A DNA stretch of 64,000 nucleotides from Chromatiales bacterium (GTDB taxonomy: Bacteria; Pseudomonadota; Gammaproteobacteria; JAGRGH01): contig JAGRGH010000037.1 in assembly GCA_020445605.1 (NCBI GenBank), positions 108,354 through 172,353 on the forward strand, in the 5' to 3' direction. Positions within the stretch are counted from its first letter, which is position 1. Each line of letters starts with the position of its first letter. This document shows positions 23,835-56,178 of the stretch, piece by piece. Below the pieces are notes generated by a model. The model ran no database searches. It was not told where the DNA came from and was given only the letters and a program-made list of their open reading frames with translations. Both the position numbers and the translations under genes were made by a program.

Positions 23835-25391
23835 ATGGCAAGCCATGACCGGATCGAACTGGCCGGCCGACTCTTACGCATCGTTCCGAAACAATCACCC
23901 AGAATGCTGACCCGGATTACGCTGTACCTCGTCGGGCTTGCGCTGAGCATCGCGCAGTTCGTGATGATTCGGGATTTCGTCTCGATCCTCTACGGCGAAG
24001 AGATTGTGATCGTGCTGGTTACCGCCTCGTTCTTCGTCGGGCTGTCGGCCGGGTACCTGTTGTCGTTGCGGCTGTCGGATCAGGTGTTTCGGGCGCTGCT
24101 GGTGATCTCGGTGTTTCTGCACCTGAGCTTCCCGTTCTCGTATCGGTACCTGGCCTCGTGGTTCGCGGCCATCGAGGTTTCGGGCTACCTGTATCTGTGG
24201 CTGCTGTTCATCTATGCGCTGCTGTTCAATGCCGCCTTTGCGACCTTCCTGCCACGGCTGGTGTCGGATGCGGCCGGTGCCTCCGCGGCCGGCGGTGTCA
24301 CCGAGGAGCAGCGACTGAAGGTGTTCTACGGGCTGGAACTGGCCGGATTCATGTCCGGGTTCCTGATCGTCGCGGCGAGCTGGAGCCGGCCGCTCGTCGA
24401 TCTGATGACCGCGTACTGGGTGGCGATCGGCGTGATCGTCTGGCTGACCCTGCGGCGCTGGTCCGTGACCGCGGTCTACATCGTTGCGGCGGCCGTGGTC
24501 GTGTACTGGTTTCCGACCCTGGACTATCACAGCACGGCATTGCTGTACGAGAAGAAGCACGGTCTCGGCGAGGCCGAGGTGCTGTTCTCGGTCAACTCGC
24601 CGTATCAGCGTGTCGAAGTCATCGAGACACCGGATGGCGATCGGCGTCTGTACCTGGATGGGCTGCTGAACCTGAATTCCAGCGATCTGAGTTCGCTGAA
24701 CTTCTATATCGCGGAAGTGCCGGCCCGGCTCATGAACCCGGAGCGCACGCTGATCATCGGCAACGGCACCCTGTCCTCGGTGCCGAAAGTCCATCAATAC
24801 ACGCGCGAGCTGACCTCCGTCGAGCTGGACGGCGGCGTGCTGAAGGCCGGCCAGCAGTTCTACACCACGGCCGAGGACCTGAAGGGGATCGAGAACTGGT
24901 CACTGCACACCGACGACGGCAAGCATTTTCTGCTGACCTCCAAGGAACAGTTCGATCTCGTCGTTGTGGACGTGCCATCGCCGCTGACGATCCAGGAGGC
25001 CTACCTGCATTCGAAGGAGTTCTATGGGCTGGTCGCGCGGCGCCTGGGGCCGAATGGCGTCGTCGCCGTGCAGCTCAGCGGGCCGCTGCAACGCAATGAC
25101 CGCACGCCGGCGCGCGTGACAAAGGCGTTGCGCGCCGCGTTTCCTGAAGTCATGGCGATCTACAGCGAGCGTGCGGACCGCGGTTTCGCCTACGCCTCGA
25201 AGTCGCTGCCGTTCAGCGTCGCGGATGTCCAGGGCATCGCGAAGGGTTACGAGAAGGGCGGTGACTTCGAGGTGGTCGGTCCCGAGACGATCGATTCCTA
25301 TCTGGACGAAACCGTTGCGCTGTCCGTCAACTCCATGGACCTGGTGCTGCGCCGCGGCTGGGAACGTTTCACCGAACGGTATTTCCGCTGA
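23835..25391 (+). CDS. membrane-fused spermidine-synthase-like (aminopropyltransferase-fold) protein
   Basis: 518 aa (an alternative start lies at 23904). A polytopic N-terminal half of about 240 aa is followed by a SpeE-like C-terminal half (SPYQRVEVIE, LYLDG, SVELDGGV, HTDDGKHFL, FDLVVVDVPSP). The canonical GGGDGG motif reads IIGNGT, and D-x-x-D-P reads DVPSP. Confidence 0.72.
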   Translation: MASHDRIELAGRLLRIVPKQSPRMLTRITLYLVGLALSIAQFVMIRDFVSILYGEEIVIVLVTASFFVGLSAGYLLSLRLSDQVFRALLVISVFLHLSFPFSYRYLASWFAAIEVSGYLYLWLLFIYALLFNAAFATFLPRLVSDAAGASAAGGVTEEQRLKVFYGLELAGFMSGFLIVAASWSRPLVDLMTAYWVAIGVIVWLTLRRWSVTAVYIVAAAVVVYWFPTLDYHSTALLYEKKHGLGEAEVLFSVNSPYQRVEVIETPDGDRRLYLDGLLNLNSSDLSSLNFYIAEVPARLMNPERTLIIGNGTLSSVPKVHQYTRELTSVELDGGVLKAGQQFYTTAEDLKGIENWSLHTDDGKHFLLTSKEQFDLVVVDVPSPLTIQEAYLHSKEFYGLVARRLGPNGVVAVQLSGPLQRNDRTPARVTKALRAAFPEVMAIYSERADRGFAYASKSLPFSVADVQGIAKGYEKGGDFEVVGPETIDSYLDETVALSVNSMDLVLRRGWERFTERYFR

Positions 25392-26650
25392 TGCACGGGC
25401 CGGCATTGTTTGGATCGCTAACGGGTTTGCACCTGGCCCTGCTGCAGTTCTGTTACTTCTTTCTGCTGCTCGTCAACGTGACATCGACGTATGTCACTTA
25501 CATGTCGATCGTCGTGTCGTGGATGCTCGGCACACTGCTCGGCCTGTGGATCGGATGGCTCAGGCCATTGCCGATGTTCGTTGCGGGGGGCGTCGCGTAC
25601 TACCTGGTCTATGCGCTGGTGATTGCCCAGCCGCTGTGGCCATTGACGCTGCCGATCGCCTGCGTGGGCGTGGTGATCACCGGCCTGTGGGCCGGGCGGT
25701 TTTTCGTCGAGATGCGGCCGTATTTCCGCGGCGTCGATCGCCTGTTCTTTCACGAGAACAACGGTTTCCTGTTCGGCGTGATCGCCGTGTTTGTCGGGTT
25801 CTCGCTCGGTGGCCTGCCGTTCCTGCTGGGCGCCCCGCTGGTTTCGGCGATCGTGCTGTTCGTGTATCTGCGCTGGCTGCTGTCGCGGCGCGACGCGCTG
25901 GCGCAGGCGATCGCTGGCGTGGATTCGTCCGCGGCTGCGGATCACGCAGCCTCGGGTCGCCTGGCCGGATCGCTCGCGGGCGCGTTCAATGGGCTCGTCG
26001 CGGCGGCGGGGCTCGGCGCATTCGGCCTGCCGCTGGTCTATCTGCTCGCGTTTGCAACCAGCGGTCGCACGATGATGGTTTCCGTGCTCGCCGAAGGCAG
26101 CGGCGTCGTATGGCTGGCGGTGGCGTGCTGGCTCGCTGCCGCGCTGGTCGCGGCCTTTGAGCTCACATCGACTACCCGGGCGCGCTCCACGTGGCCCCTG
26201 TGGCTGTTCGCGCTGTGGGCGGTGCTCGCGGCGATTCACCGTGCCCTGGGCTGGCAGCCGTTCGCTCTGCTCTCGATCTCTGAAACGTCGTCGGCCCTGC
26301 TCTGGGTGTTCGCAAGCCTCGCCGTCCTGGCCTCGCTGGTACTAGGCACGGCCGCGCGCCGACCGCGTATGTATCTCGGCCTCGGTCTGCTTCTCGTTGC
26401 GCTGGCACTGGTACTTTCCTCCGGCGTTGCAGTGCCCGATGACGAAGAGCGCGATTCGCTAGAGGCATTGGCGCGGCTCGCGGAGATGTTCGGTGCCTGG
26501 CTCACGCTGGCCGGGGGTGTGAGCCGACTTACCGATACGGCGCGGTCAGCTCCAGAAGTGACGTCTGAGCCGGAGCCTGAGCCAGCGTCTGACTCCGAAC
26601 CTGCTCCCGAGCCGGACCTTCCCGACGCCGTGACACCCGCCAACGCATGA
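25391..26650 (+). CDS. polytopic membrane protein, function unknown
   Basis: 419 aa. The TGATG junction overlaps the previous stop by 1 nt. It has roughly 10 or more hydrophobic helices and an acidic Pro/Glu-rich C-terminal tail (SEPEPEPASDSEPAPEPDLP). Confidence 0.62.
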   Translation: MHGPALFGSLTGLHLALLQFCYFFLLLVNVTSTYVTYMSIVVSWMLGTLLGLWIGWLRPLPMFVAGGVAYYLVYALVIAQPLWPLTLPIACVGVVITGLWAGRFFVEMRPYFRGVDRLFFHENNGFLFGVIAVFVGFSLGGLPFLLGAPLVSAIVLFVYLRWLLSRRDALAQAIAGVDSSAAADHAASGRLAGSLAGAFNGLVAAAGLGAFGLPLVYLLAFATSGRTMMVSVLAEGSGVVWLAVACWLAAALVAAFELTSTTRARSTWPLWLFALWAVLAAIHRALGWQPFALLSISETSSALLWVFASLAVLASLVLGTAARRPRMYLGLGLLLVALALVLSSGVAVPDDEERDSLEALARLAEMFGAWLTLAGGVSRLTDTARSAPEVTSEPEPEPASDSEPAPEPDLPDAVTPANA

Positions 26651-27432
26651 TCGACCCGAACCTGCCGCAACCGCACGCCCCGGCGGATACCGCTACGCTG
26701 CATGCGCTCGGTCGCCATGCGCGCCTGCTCATGTTTGTTATCGTTGTCGTGAATGTTGCGCTTCCGCTCGGCAACTGGGCCTGGTCGGCGCTGCACGATC
26801 GTCCGCTGTGGACGATGTATCGCGGCGATCTGACGCCGGTCGAATGGTGGTCGAGCATGCAGCTGTTGCTGGTCGCGTGGATTGCCCTGCTGGTCGGCAT
26901 GCTCGGACGGCATGCTCGCGATGCCGGTGTTGGCGCGGACATCGCGCCGCACAATGCACTGTGGGGGCTTGTCGCGATTGGTTTTGTCGTGCTGTCGCTC
27001 GACGAGGCCTTCGACGTTCACGAGGCGATCCGTGACGAATTCATCGCCCCGTCCGGCTGGTTCACGCACTACGACTGGCTGCTGAATGGCGACATCGTGC
27101 TGCTGGCCGTGTTCGCGATTGCGCTTCTGCTGCTACCGGTGTTTTTCCGGGCGTTCGGTGATCGACGGACCCGCGGCTTTCTTTTGCTGCTGCTCGCGTT
27201 GGTGGTGGTGTTGCCGGCCCTGGTCATCGATGCGATGGCCGATAGCCATATCGTCAGGCTGCCCGACTGGCGGTTCTGGGACTACGTCTACGAGGAACAG
27301 GCCGAAGCCGTCGCGGCGGGCCTCATCGCACTGGCATTCCTCGATGTTCTGCGTGCCCGGGCGCGCGAATTGCTGGGCTTGCTCGGCAACGACGACGGAG
27401 ACCCTGCGGGGCAGGCCGCCGAATCACACTAG
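26647..27432 (+). CDS. polytopic membrane protein, function unknown
   Basis: 261 aa with an ATGA overlap with the previous gene. It has about 6 helices and contains LSLDEAFDVHEAIRDEF. Its TAG stop (27430-27432) lies inside the terminal CTAG of the downstream repeat element. Confidence 0.62.
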   Translation: MIDPNLPQPHAPADTATLHALGRHARLLMFVIVVVNVALPLGNWAWSALHDRPLWTMYRGDLTPVEWWSSMQLLLVAWIALLVGMLGRHARDAGVGADIAPHNALWGLVAIGFVVLSLDEAFDVHEAIRDEFIAPSGWFTHYDWLLNGDIVLLAVFAIALLLLPVFFRAFGDRRTRGFLLLLLALVVVLPALVIDAMADSHIVRLPDWRFWDYVYEEQAEAVAAGLIALAFLDVLRARARELLGLLGNDDGDPAGQAAESH

Positions 27433-27865
27433 GGCCTGTTCACACTACGCTTGGCGCAGCGTTGCTGCCCCAAAATACGTCAGGCAAGGCGCGAGGAGAG
27501 AGGTTTGGCGTGTCTAACAGGTCGCTGAAAAAGGCCCATCCCTGGCCTTTTCAACGTCGCAACCGAAAAGCGCGGTTTTCGGTTGCTCACGAAAATCAAA
27601 CACTTGAGTGTTCGATTTTCGGGCGAGACGTCCCTGTCTCGCGATGTCAGGCTGTTGAGATGAGAATTTCAACAGCCTGCTCAATGAACGACGAACAACG
27701 CAGCATGACGGATTTTGGGGCGCAACCCCTCGGGACGGGGCCGTTGTGGTGGCCAACCGCGTTGCGGTTCGCTGATGTACGTCAAGTACACTGCGCTCAC
27801 AGCGCCTTGTTGGCCACAACAACGGCCACCGTCGCTGCGTCACCCGTAGTGTGAACAGGCCCTAG
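27429..27865 (+). mobile_element. MITE-like, TIR-bounded multi-hairpin element (full-length copy A)
   Basis: It has perfect 21-nt inverted termini (27429-27449 and 27845-27865) and nested inverted repeats. Five consecutive hairpins lie at 27526-27678 and a long hairpin joins 27739-27756 with 27810-27827. There is no credible ORF. Partial copies occur at 37538-37719 and 53424-53577. Confidence 0.7.
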
Positions 27866-27872
27866 GAATCCC

Positions 27873-28607
27873 ATGCGGCAGATCGTTCTGGATACCGAGA
27901 CCACGGGGCTTGATACGCAACAGGGTCACCGCATCATCGAGATCGGTTGCGTGGAACTGGTTTCGCGGCGTCCGACCGGCAACGATTTTCATCAGTACCT
28001 GAATCCGGAGCGCGAGATCGACGCCGGCGCCGCGGAGGTGCATGGCATCACGCTGGCGGACCTCGCCGGCAAGCCGCGCTTTTCGGACATTGCCCCGGAA
28101 CTGGTCAAGTATCTCGCGGGCGCCGAGGTCATCATCCACAACGCGCCGTTCGATGTGGGATTTCTCGACCATGAGTTCCACCACTGCGGTCTGTCCGAGC
28201 GCATCGCGAGCCTGTGCACGGTCGTCGATACACTGACGCTGGCACGCGAGATCCATCCCGGCCAGCGCAACAGCCTGGATGCGCTGTGCAAGCGCTACGC
28301 GGTGGACAACACCGGTCGCGATCTGCACGGCGCGCTGCTCGACGCACGCCTGCTGGCCGATGTCTATCTGGCGATGACCGGCGGTCAGGTTGCGCTGAGT
28401 TTCGACCAGCCCGCGGAGTCGACCGGCGGTGCCGTGGCGAATGCCGTGCCGGATCCCGCTGCGCAAGGCACGCACCGAGTGACATCGCGTGCGCGACTCA
28501 CGGTGGTCCGCCCGACCGCTGTCGAGTTGGAGGCCCATGAGCGAAGGCTCGACGAGATCGAAAAATCCAGCGGTGCCGTGGTGTGGAGACAGATTGAGCC
28601 TGTTTAG
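27873..28607 (+). CDS. dnaQ: DNA polymerase III epsilon subunit (3'-5' proofreading exonuclease)
   Basis: 244 aa. It has the DEDDh exonuclease motifs (IVLDTETTGL, IIHNAPFDVGFL, HGALLDARLLADVYL). Confidence 0.92.
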   Translation: MRQIVLDTETTGLDTQQGHRIIEIGCVELVSRRPTGNDFHQYLNPEREIDAGAAEVHGITLADLAGKPRFSDIAPELVKYLAGAEVIIHNAPFDVGFLDHEFHHCGLSERIASLCTVVDTLTLAREIHPGQRNSLDALCKRYAVDNTGRDLHGALLDARLLADVYLAMTGGQVALSFDQPAESTGGAVANAVPDPAAQGTHRVTSRARLTVVRPTAVELEAHERRLDEIEKSSGAVVWRQIEPV

Positions 28608-53302: not shown

Positions 53303-53423
53303 GGGATTGGTTCCAGGGGATCAAACCGATCCCCATGCTACCGGGCTACGGCCGGCACGCATTGATCCAGCGCATGCGCAACTCCGGCCAGCCGGGACGG
53401 ACGGACAGGGGCGCGACCTGACG

Positions 53424-53577
53424 GGCTGTTGAATTCTCATTTCAACCGCCTGATCACGCGAGACCGGGACGTCTCGCCCGAAAATCTAACATGCAAGTGT
53501 TTGATTTTCGTGAGCAACCGAAAACCACCCTTTTCGGTCGCGAGGTTGAAAAGGCCATGGAAACGCCTTTTTCAACA
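53424..53577 (-). repeat. core-only copy (B) of the multi-hairpin element
   Basis: The reverse complement aligns along its length with 27524-27678 of copy A, covering the same five hairpins. It begins 6 nt after the recN stop codon. No terminal inverted repeats are present. Confidence 0.72.
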
Positions 53578-53582
53578 ACCCG

Positions 53583-55247
53583 CTAATGCGGATGCGCACG
53601 TTCGAGCATCTCGGCCGCATGTGCGCGGGTCTGCTCGGTGATTTCCGCGCCGCCGAGCATGCGTGCGATTTCACCCGTACGCTGCTCGGGTTCGAGCGTC
53701 TGCACGCTGGTTTCGGTACGACCATCGCGCACCTGCTTGTCGACCCGCAGGTGGGCGTGTCCATGCACCGCGACCTGCGGCAGGTGGGTGACGCACAGGA
53801 CCTGGCGGTTCGCGCCGAGCCGTCGCAGCAGGCGCCCGACCTGTTCGGCGACGCGCCCGCCGACGCCGGCGTCGACCTCGTCGAAGATCAGGGTCGGCAC
53901 GCTCGAGGCCGCCACGGTCGCGACCTGCAACGCGAGGCTGATGCGGGAGAGTTCGCCGCCCGAGGCGATCTTGTGGATCGGACCCGGCGCGTGACCGGGA
54001 TTGGTGGCGACCATGAAGCGCGCCCGCTCGGTGCCGGTCGCGCTGCGCTCGGCGCGCGGTTCGAACTCGATCGCAAGCCGCGCCTGGGACATGCCGAGTT
54101 CGCCGAGCAGTGCCTCGACTTCGGCGCTCAGGCCGAGCGCGGCTTCGCGCCGCCGCCGTCCGAGCGCGGCTGCGAGACCATCGTATTGCTTCGCCAGGGC
54201 TTCGACCTGCGCGCGCAGGGTGTCCAGGCCCTGTTCGCCGGCGTCCAGGTCCGCCAGTTCCGCAGCGAGTTCCGCATGCCGCGCGAACAGATCGCCGGCC
54301 CGCACGCGATGTTTGCGCGCCAGGGTGTGGATGCAGTCCAGCCGCTGTTCTACGGTCTGGATGCGGGCGTCGTCGGTTTCCAGGCGGTCGAGATAACGAC
54401 GCAGGTCGGAGCCGGCCTCATCGAGCGCAATGACTGCGCCATTGACGGTCTGCGCGATGTCTTCGAGCCCGGCATCCAGCCCGGCCAGCTCGCGCAGCCG
54501 CTCCGCCAGGGTTGCGAGCTGCCCGCGCGGGCCGTCGTCCGCGTCCAGCGCGTCCATGGATTGTCCGCCCTCGCTGAGCAGCCGCTCGAGGTTCGACAGC
54601 CGGGCATGCTCCGCACCGAGCTGCTCGAATTCATCGGTGCCGAGGGCCAGTTCGTCGAGTTCGTCGACCTGGAAGCGCAGCAGGTCGCGATGTTCGGCGC
54701 GCGCTTGGGCGGACTGTTCGCGCCTCTGAAGCAGCTCGTTCGCCTGAGCCCACTCGGCAAAGCAGTCGGCGAGTGCCCGGGCTTCGCCCTGCAGCGCGCC
54801 GTAGTGATCGAGGCGACGCAGTTGCTCGACCGGTGCGGCCAGCGACTGGTGGGTGTTCTGGCCGTGGATGTCGACGAGCAGCGCGCCGAGTTCGGTCAGT
54901 GTGGCGATCGGTACCGGCGCACCATTGACGAATCCGCGCGAACGCCCATCGGCGCCGACCACGCGACGCAGCAGGCATTCGCCCTGGGCATCCAGTTCGC
55001 GGGCGGCGAGCCAGTCGAGGATGCCGGACCGCTCGCTGATGTCGAAGACCGCGCTGATGTCGGCGCGCGCGGCGCCGGTGCGCACCGTCGTGCGGTCGGC
55101 GCGCGCGCCCATCGCCAGCAGCAGCGCGTCGATCAGGATCGACTTGCCGGCACCGGTTTCGCCCGACAGCACCGTGAGCCCTGGGCCGAGTTCCAGACTC
55201 TGGCTGCTGACCACGGCCAGATCGCGGATTGCGAGACTGATCAGCAT
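53583..55247 (-). CDS. recN: DNA repair protein RecN
   Basis: Trimmed to the ATG at 55247, giving 554 aa. It has the Walker A motif GETGAGKSILIDAL, a long coiled coil, and the C-terminal SMC signature (SGGELSRISLAL, FDEVDAGVGG). Confidence 0.93.
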   Translation of the reverse strand: MLISLAIRDLAVVSSQSLELGPGLTVLSGETGAGKSILIDALLLAMGARADRTTVRTGAARADISAVFDISERSGILDWLAARELDAQGECLLRRVVGADGRSRGFVNGAPVPIATLTELGALLVDIHGQNTHQSLAAPVEQLRRLDHYGALQGEARALADCFAEWAQANELLQRREQSAQARAEHRDLLRFQVDELDELALGTDEFEQLGAEHARLSNLERLLSEGGQSMDALDADDGPRGQLATLAERLRELAGLDAGLEDIAQTVNGAVIALDEAGSDLRRYLDRLETDDARIQTVEQRLDCIHTLARKHRVRAGDLFARHAELAAELADLDAGEQGLDTLRAQVEALAKQYDGLAAALGRRRREAALGLSAEVEALLGELGMSQARLAIEFEPRAERSATGTERARFMVATNPGHAPGPIHKIASGGELSRISLALQVATVAASSVPTLIFDEVDAGVGGRVAEQVGRLLRRLGANRQVLCVTHLPQVAVHGHAHLRVDKQVRDGRTETSVQTLEPEQRTGEIARMLGGAEITEQTRAHAAEMLERAHPH

Positions 55248-55308
55248 TGGGTGTGAATCGTTGCGGTGAATCGTGAACGGGCCCGTCCGGCCGGGGACCG
55301 GGCGTCGC

Positions 55309-56178
55309 TCAGCCCCAGCGCAGCTTCGCGCGCAGGACCGAGAAGTAGTCGTACTCCGGCAGGTGCAGCAGGCGCACCCGCTCGCGCTTGCGCACGACCC
55401 GCACGCGGGCGCCCGTCGGGACTTCGAATCCGGTCTGGCCGTCACAGGTCACGCGCGCGGTGTTCGCCATGGCGTCCGCGACTGTGATCTCGATGGGTTC
55501 ATCGCCGCTCACGACCAGTGGCCGGTTGCTGAGTGTGTGCGGGCAGATCGGCACCAGCAGCGTCGCGTCGAGCTGCGGTTCGAGGATCGGGCCGCCACCG
55601 GACAGCGCATAGGCCGTCGACCCGGTCGGGGTCGAAACGATCAGTCCGTCGGCGCGCTGGCGATTCAGGAACCGTCCGCCGATGGTGGTTTCCAGTTCGA
55701 TCATCCGCGCCGTGCCCCACTTGTGCACGACCACGTCGTTGAAGGCGTCGGCACGGCTCACCGCGTGACCCTCGTGCTCGATCTCGCAGGCGAGGATGGA
55801 GCGACGTTCCTCCAGGAATTCGCCGTCGAGGATGCGTTCGAGGCTGGTTTGCATGTCGCCAGCCGAGATCTCGGCGAGAAATCCGAGGCGACCCAGGTTG
55901 ACGCCCACCAGCGGCACGTCCGTCGCGAGCATCGCCCGTGCGCAGTGCAGCAGCGTGCCGTCGCCACCCAGTACGATGGCGAGGTCCACACGCCGGGCGA
56001 GTTCATCGATTGGCAGACCGGTCGTGCCGGCCTGCGCACAGCAGGCGGCCGTGGTCTCCTCGAACAGGACCTTGGGCACGCGCGTGCCCAGCCAGCCGGC
56101 GAGCGCGGCCAGCGCGCCGCTGACACGCGGGTCCTCCGGTTTTCCGATCAGCCCGATGCTTTGAAAGCGTGACGCCAT
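55309..56178 (-). CDS. nadK: NAD+ kinase
   Basis: Trimmed to the ATG at 56178, giving 289 aa. It has the motifs GGDGTLL and ...STPTGSTAYALSGGGPI.... Confidence 0.9.
   Translation of the reverse strand: MASRFQSIGLIGKPEDPRVSGALAALAGWLGTRVPKVLFEETTAACCAQAGTTGLPIDELARRVDLAIVLGGDGTLLHCARAMLATDVPLVGVNLGRLGFLAEISAGDMQTSLERILDGEFLEERRSILACEIEHEGHAVSRADAFNDVVVHKWGTARMIELETTIGGRFLNRQRADGLIVSTPTGSTAYALSGGGPILEPQLDATLLVPICPHTLSNRPLVVSGDEPIEITVADAMANTARVTCDGQTGFEVPTGARVRVVRKRERVRLLHLPEYDYFSVLRAKLRWG

Follow-up and report, generated by a model that had tools for sequence, protein, structure and literature searches.

The DNA analysed here is a stretch of 64,000 nucleotides (the window) from a contig of a Chromatiales bacterium, in which 437 bp (27429-27865) lie between the open reading frame (ORF) of a predicted membrane protein and dnaQ, encoding the epsilon subunit of DNA polymerase III. 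These 437 bp very probably consist of two nested non-autonomous transposable elements, namely a miniature inverted-repeat transposable element (MITE) of the IS5/IS427 kind and a second small repeat that has inserted into it. What appears to be new is the MITE family, which seems not to have been described; its class, ordinary selfish DNA, is known. All features that the initial annotation had placed between the two genes were recovered. The sequence CTAGGGCCTGTTCACACTACG occupies 27429-27449 and its exact reverse complement 27845-27865, forming the perfect 21-nt inverted repeat that had been noticed, and a repeat finder widened this terminal pairing to 42 nt at 83%. The same tool returned the nested pair 27467-27485/27703-27721 (19 nt, 89%), the long hairpin 27739-27757/27809-27827 (19 nt, 95%), and four of the five hairpins between 27526 and 27679; the fifth, at 27623-27642, was visible in the computed fold. 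The annotation as one single element of 437 bp holds only in part: the whole is bounded by inverted repeats, but the five central hairpins form a separate insert. The 18-nt terminus occurs twice in the window, compared to 0.06 expected occurrences, and none of 100 shuffles contained it two or more times. Furthermore, a profile built from 29 members of the family matched the window solely at 27432-27862. This outer MITE measures 431 nt, comprising 265 nt of its own sequence and 166 inserted bases.

To place the element among its relatives, we scanned one genome per species for TARGGCCTGTTCACACTACG. The 20-nt terminus was found in at least 120 listed genome stretches, mostly as inverted pairs about 264 nt apart. 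Among the matches listed, the hosts are Burkholderiales, Chromatiales-like and other Gammaproteobacteria, Acidobacteriota, Dehalococcoidia, Gemmatimonadota, Bacteroidota, Treponema, and Desulfovibrio, and the paired ends fall into size classes of about 264 nt (n = 29), 811-815 nt (n = 12), 145-173 nt, and about 45 nt. Once 27517-27682 was removed from the window element, the remainder aligned from end to end, with 78-84% identity, to MITEs of ~271 nt in one Chromatiales metagenome-assembled genome (MAG) and one other gammaproteobacterial MAG. Copies in relatives were thus found, and the family is multi-copy in many genomes: termini lie on six contigs of the closest host, the Chromatiales MAG, and on four to five contigs each of other MAGs. 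Many unpaired ends lie close to a contig end, at a distance of about 250 nt or less, a pattern typical of repeats at which assemblies break, and three metagenome contigs of the window's own organism begin inside the element. A plasmid collection searched with the window element and one Burkholderiales MITE gave no real match and no derivative of ~265 nt, and the terminus did not occur in the viral contigs searched. Our literature search returned no paper with the terminal sequence and none on an IS427-derived MITE targeting CTAG. The MITE family is widespread, being common in environmental Burkholderiales and also present in other phyla.

The smaller size classes deserve separate mention. In minimal elements of ~45 nt, a short loop joins the two terminal repeats, and nothing else is left between the CTAG or CTAA flanks (L036 4028-4075, L051 649-693, L068 3122-3167, L085 5718-5765, L090 4486-4530, and L119 6156-6200 among the listed stretches). 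They resemble MITEs from which the whole interior of the terminal stem has been deleted, the kind of loss that extrusion of a DNA hairpin would favour. Elements of 145-173 nt (L061, L064, L097, L103, L120, and L125, including in a Desulfovibrio MAG) have the same ends and different interiors, and may represent independent MITE lineages served by the same transposase. In addition, a MAG labelled Chitinophaga pinensis (L010 3859-4122; L096) contains a MITE near-identical to the copy of Piscinibacter L012, which may reflect a mis-binned betaproteobacterial contig or a recent transfer.

Compared to its closest relatives, the window element alone contains a block of 166 nt, made up of a 162-nt element and the four bases CTCA, and this block contains exactly the five back-to-back hairpins. 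The 162-nt element has a short terminal inverted repeat (TIR) of its own, CAGGTCGCTGAA...TTCAACAGCCTG. It is absent from the four closest related MITEs, which show a single CTAA at that point and therefore represent empty sites for the nested element. A second copy within the window (Table 1) begins right after the TAG stop of an ORF with a RecF/RecN/SMC domain (53583-55445, minus strand) and is flanked by TTAG and TCAG. This copy is located upstream of an ORF with a cNMP-binding domain; both copies follow a YTAR motif and are oriented as their upstream gene. Searches for the nested element found no copies beyond these two.

Table 1. Positions of the features in and around the element preceding dnaQ, and of the second copy of the nested repeat.
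Feature	Position	Strand	Basis or remark
TA duplication, left copy	27430-27431		Inside CTAG 27429-27432; family-wide flank analysis
Outer MITE including nested insert	27432-27862	+	End-to-end alignment with relatives, insert removed
Left 18-nt TIR, GGGCCTGTTCACACTACG	27432-27449	+	Equals about 170 element termini in at least 120 genome stretches
Subterminal extension of the terminal helix	27454-27461	+	Pairs with 27833-27840
Left hairpin (helix 2), 5' arm	27467-27485	+	Pairs with 27703-27721
CTAA, probable target of the nested element	27514-27517	+	Imperfect repeat CTCA at 27680-27683
Nested hairpin-rich repeat element, 162 nt	27518-27679	+	Absent from the four closest MITE relatives; second copy in the window
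Left hairpin (helix 2), 3' arm	27703-27721	+	Repeat finder, covariation
Right hairpin (helices 3 and 4)	27739-27827	+	Arms 27739-27757 and 27809-27827
Right 18-nt TIR	27845-27862	-	
TA duplication, right copy	27863-27864		A27864 is also the first base of AGGA 27864-27867
Nested repeat, second copy, 161 nt	53422-53582	-	87% identity over 158 nt
Upstream 261-aa ORF, predicted membrane protein	26647-27432	+	TAG stop 27430-27432
dnaQ, DNA polymerase III epsilon, 244 aa, intact	27873-28607	+	Pfam RNase_T, 134.6 bits

Target site and duplication were derived from 172 ends and 57 complete elements in the listed stretches. The flanking 4-mer is CTAG at 120 of the 172 ends and TTAG at a further 29, and TA is found on both sides in 46 of the 57 complete elements (811-815-nt elements included). 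For the 34 complete elements without CTAG on both sides, the two flanking 4-mers differ in every case, and the base beside the 17-nt core is G on the left in 33/34 and C on the right in 34/34. These statistics indicate a TIR of 18 nt, a duplication of TA, and CTAG as the preferred target. From the window alone, duplications of 2 bp and 4 bp are indistinguishable because CTAG is palindromic; a 4-bp YTAR duplication for the outer MITE was rejected on the family statistics. The upstream stop codon is now composed of the TA duplication and the first G of the MITE, and AGGA begins with the A of the second TA.

The elements of 811-815 nt (measured between the outer ends of the 17-nt core) enclose an OrfA (MELTQAHYQLIEPYLP...), a run of seven or eight A (A7/A8), and an OrfB in the -1 frame with a DDE region. 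These autonomous elements of ~815 bp have repeats of 15-18 nt and TA duplications, and the 18-nt ends of the MITE are identical to those of such insertion sequences (ISs) in other phyla. Their transposase is predicted to be made by -1 frameshifting on the A7/A8 run, and the fused OrfA-OrfB protein matches NCBIfam NF033580 (IS5 family transposase) with 242 bits at a cutoff of 110, Pfam DUF4096 with 80 bits, and DDE_Tnp_1 with 69 bits. Since raw ORF lists beside single termini were uninformative at the high GC content, they were replaced by tblastn with the transposase. Applied to the 64-kb window, tblastn revealed no transposase homology, and a search with the 130-aa ORF spanning the element found no homologues, which agrees with the annotated lack of a transposase and of a protein-like internal ORF. 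Among the matches listed, transposase-bearing copies come only from Dehalococcoidia, Acidobacteriota, and Treponema, and Acidobacteriota contain both ISs and MITEs. What the MITE has in common with these partners is the terminal 17-18 nt only; the interior is unrelated. Near-identical full-length ISs were also observed on one 3.6-Mb Dehalococcoidia contig (L011, L034, L047, and L072) and elsewhere (L030, L038, L087, and L121), with at least four per genome in several Dehalococcoidia MAGs, which suggests recent activity of the autonomous element there.

ISs of the IS427 group (IS1248, ISPpa2, and ISPaes1) are about 830-865 bp long, with TIRs of 13-21 bp, mostly 2-bp direct repeats, and two overlapping ORFs linked by programmed frameshifting (PMC3281130). 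The partner ISs resemble them in size, short repeats of 15-18 nt, TA duplications, and two ORFs joined at a slippery A7/A8 run. From these features, together with the NF033580 match and PMC3281130, we infer that they belong to the IS427 group, with IS870 as an example of a relative, and not to IS5 proper. The proposal of MITE-like, IS5-family ends at CTAG/YTAR can thus be kept in that the same ends bound ~815-bp elements with an IS5-family transposase, and has to be amended in two respects, as the duplication is 2-bp TA next to an 18-nt TIR and the relatives are of the IS427 group. According to PMC13630536, citing Fournier et al. 1993, IS870 of Agrobacterium vitis and ISMt1 of Mycobacterium tuberculosis insert into 5'-CTAG-3', and the stop codon of their transposase is provided by the TAG of the target. 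By this published description, the full-length ISs with the MITE's ends behave likewise: in the Dehalococcoidia copies, the reading frame continues across the terminal repeat until the TAG within the flanking CTAG ends it. In contrast, the window element has no transposase and is one third the size. Relatives of the partner transposase were also identified on plasmids of Burkholderia, Polaromonas, and Pseudomonas (64-70% protein identity, near-identical ends, and CTAG flanks). These include annotated IS5 family transposase elements of Burkholderia thailandensis, B. gladioli, Polaromonas JS666, and Pseudomonas aeruginosa, with 65-70% protein identity to the partner transposase. They are CTAG-flanked, and their ends read CTAG followed by GGCGTGTTCACACTAC or GGCCTGTTAACGCTAA, with one to three base differences in the terminal repeat. 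Unlike the window MITE, these plasmid elements are autonomous.

The element folds with -249.8 kcal/mol, compared to -156.7 +/- 6.0 for shuffles (z = -15.6). Similar values were obtained when the opposite strand was folded (z = -12.6) and when DNA parameters were used (z = -16.0), as would be expected if the palindromes exist at the DNA level. The 29 diverged copies have little common sequence beyond the ends and the motifs AAGGCGC, GCAACGC/GCGTTGC, and CAAC-CCC-loop-GGG-AACG, and fold alike into a terminal stem, two long hairpins, and a small central CCC-loop-GGG hairpin. RNAalifold returned 82 pairs for these copies, 58 of which show changes on both sides (nine in helix 1, 20/23 in helix 2, 21/24 in helix 3, and 8/8 in helix 4). 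The subterminal extension of the terminal helix, for example, varies in sequence among family members, with both sides changing together. In total, 92.5% of the cells were paired, compared to 67.9% after shuffling and 35-39% with slid partners, and the covariation score of 0.60 (0.16 for shuffles, about 0.1 for slid partners) was reached by none of 500 shuffles, the consensus structure having been derived from the very alignment on which it was scored. The invariance of the TIR is partly due to ascertainment, because at least one end per locus was chosen by the search pattern. Judged from the aligned copies, the MITE fold is unusually well conserved. Watson-Crick pairs make up 1687 of 1912 cells (88%), and G-T (52) and A-C (56), the latter being the wobble of the other strand, are about equally frequent. 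Our reading is that complementarity would be maintained in the DNA itself, or to the same degree on both strands; selection acting on a fold-back or cruciform substrate could account for this, and so could template-switch repair in quasi-palindromes. In Rfam, neither the window nor ten MITE loci matched a family at the gathering score, and a permissive search with the element stayed far below the cutoffs.

Taken as two nested elements, the locus would have arisen as follows. An IS427-type transposase supplied in trans would have recognised both ends of the MITE, which inserted into a CTAG overlapping the upstream TAG stop and the dnaQ Shine-Dalgarno sequence; the ancestral junction probably read ...CAC TAG GAATCCC ATG. 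With G as its first base and C as its last, the element would have restored both the stop codon (TA+G) and AGGA on insertion, so that neither gene was disrupted. The position before dnaQ would follow from CTAG often being supplied by TAG stops. The small hairpin-rich repeat would then have entered a CTAA near the apex of the left hairpin of the MITE, an event placed later because the nested element is absent in related MITEs. The fold most likely serves the propagation or persistence of the element itself rather than a host function, and dnaQ is probably still expressed by transcription through the element. For another member of the family, a related empty site was identified: the site is occupied in Piscinibacter L012 (1416-1679) and empty in the betaproteobacterial L021, to which the L012 flanks, joined at TA, align continuously with 77% identity. 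In L021, the ...AAATAG of the upstream gene is directly followed by the spacer and the AGGAG of the next gene.

Several observations weigh against this scenario. The 64-kb window holds just one copy of the MITE, and the nested element has just two known copies, both with imperfect flanking repeats (three of four bases). Among the matches listed, no full-length IS with exactly these ends comes from Proteobacteria. The search for empty sites that had been suggested initially succeeded for the Piscinibacter member and not for the dnaQ site, whose predicted empty junction is absent from the metagenome contigs. Here, all spanning contigs of the organism (L001, L003, and L005) carry the insertion with 100% identity, the nearest dnaQ relatives are 60-65% identical and non-syntenic, and the upstream gene has no relatives; the missing empty allele is thus attributable to an organism without close relatives in the collections. 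Finally, all seven MITEs between co-directional genes share the same orientation relative to the genes (7/7, p = 0.016; small sample, coding strand called by the third-position GC heuristic), and a looser hand count gave about 15 to 3. Since neither identical ends nor a palindromic target would give insertion a preferred orientation, this bias is left unexplained, and an orientation-dependent effect after insertion is possible.

It is this orientation bias that keeps alive an alternative we regard as unlikely, namely that the MITE is mobile in origin and has been kept as an intercistronic module at the transcript level, with orientation-dependent attenuation, processing, or insulation of read-through. 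At the locus studied here, such a module would determine the level of dnaQ message or partly cover the ribosome-binding site of dnaQ. The compensatory changes in the fold and the presence of the insertion in all spanning contigs are consistent with such a module. The same applies to the fold of 27400-27910, in which the terminal helix persists and includes A27864 and G27865, the first two AGGA bases; an effect on dnaQ translation or read-through is possible from this model. Moreover, for 21 of 37 short elements, the flanking TAG terminates an ORF on one side, and on the other side a same-strand ORF starts at most 60 nt away. This position, however, is explicable by CTAG occurring mainly at TAG stops: of the 172 ends, 87 show at least 100 open codons in the frame of the flanking TAG, compared to 61 and 31 in the other frames. 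As stop-to-start placement is typical of the family and involves unrelated genes, target choice also explains the position before dnaQ. The near-equal numbers of the two wobble types are unlike those of RNAs selected on one strand, no Rfam family was matched, a consensus scan of 27429-27865 revealed neither terminator-like nor promoter-like sites, and the orientation sample is limited in the ways given above. The initial idea that the element tunes dnaQ dosage is unsupported. Quite unlikely, too, is that the three-helix junction found in Burkholderiales, Chromatiales-like Gammaproteobacteria, and Acidobacteriota is a functional structure, be it a transposition substrate (fold-back or cruciform DNA) or an intercistronic RNA gating dnaQ in one orientation.

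A large structured RNA had been considered from the beginning. Taken as a strand-specific non-coding RNA of the riboregulator or ribozyme-like type, with the inverted ends as closing helix, it would suit the very stable fold and the extensive covariation in homologous elements. The part of that proposal which stands is a fold supported by covariation. As an explanation of the locus, such an RNA is very unlikely: the ends are the same as in ISs that carry a transposase, with TA duplications on either side, both strands and the DNA fold about equally well, copies occur in unrelated contexts and in both orientations, and the central third is an unrelated insertion that would disrupt such an RNA. 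Given that pairing shows no strand bias and that Rfam holds no matching family, a strand-specific RNA is not favoured. A scan for tRNA and tmRNA found none. The IS630/Tc1-mariner superfamily also targets CTAG and duplicates TA, and on these two traits the MITE could be assigned to it. We give this assignment next to no credence, as the transposase of the autonomous elements sharing these ends belongs to the IS5 family on the NF033580, DUF4096, and DDE_Tnp_1 matches given above and no IS630-type model was found among the matches listed at E <= 0.001. Just as improbable is a chance cluster of palindromes or an assembly artefact, for which nothing speaks beyond the high GC content of the region; none of 100 shuffles reached the observed repeats or fold energy, the identical sequence is present in independent metagenome assemblies, and homologues exist in many genomes.

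Regarding the flanking genes, the upstream 261-aa ORF, whose TAG stop is held by the left CTAG as annotated, has no Pfam family and retrieved just its own cluster among 5.8 billion proteins. It is accompanied by a 419-aa ORF (25391-26650), which is membrane-protein-like and likewise without a Pfam family, and both come after an ORF with a spermidine synthase domain. On the other side, the right CTAG overlaps AGGA (27864-27867) as had been described, but 5 nt rather than 7 nt separate AGGA from the dnaQ ATG at 27873. Full-length homologues of dnaQ, up to 65% identical, are named DNA polymerase III subunit epsilon, and the nearest one being only about 65% identical points to a phylogenetically isolated organism. 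The initial annotation had noted that dnaQ lacks its usual divergent rnhA partner here. Indeed, no rnhA-like gene was found in the 64-kb window; the usual arrangement, however, is not divergent, as in 68 of 80 gammaproteobacterial relatives (L130-L209) dnaQ is immediately preceded by an rnhA-like gene with the same orientation.

A known counterpart are the Correia elements of Neisseria, short MITEs without transposase that are bounded by inverted repeats, duplicate TA, and form stable hairpins; they are frequent beside or between genes and can fold once transcribed. The window MITE differs from them in sequence and size, its autonomous partner can be named, its target is CTAG, and its fold, a three-helix junction, has been preserved across genera by compensatory change. 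For the organism studied here, the two nested elements mean that the long gap before dnaQ is selfish DNA and not a regulatory region built by the host. If it were true that the insertion lowers dnaQ expression, the mutation rate could rise. For the family as a whole, a MITE that habitually lands on TAG stops inside operons and breaks metagenome assemblies matters for assembly and annotation pipelines. Its covarying fold, together with the possible orientation bias, would make it a handy model in which to distinguish selection of MITE structure for transposition from selection for an effect on the transcript.

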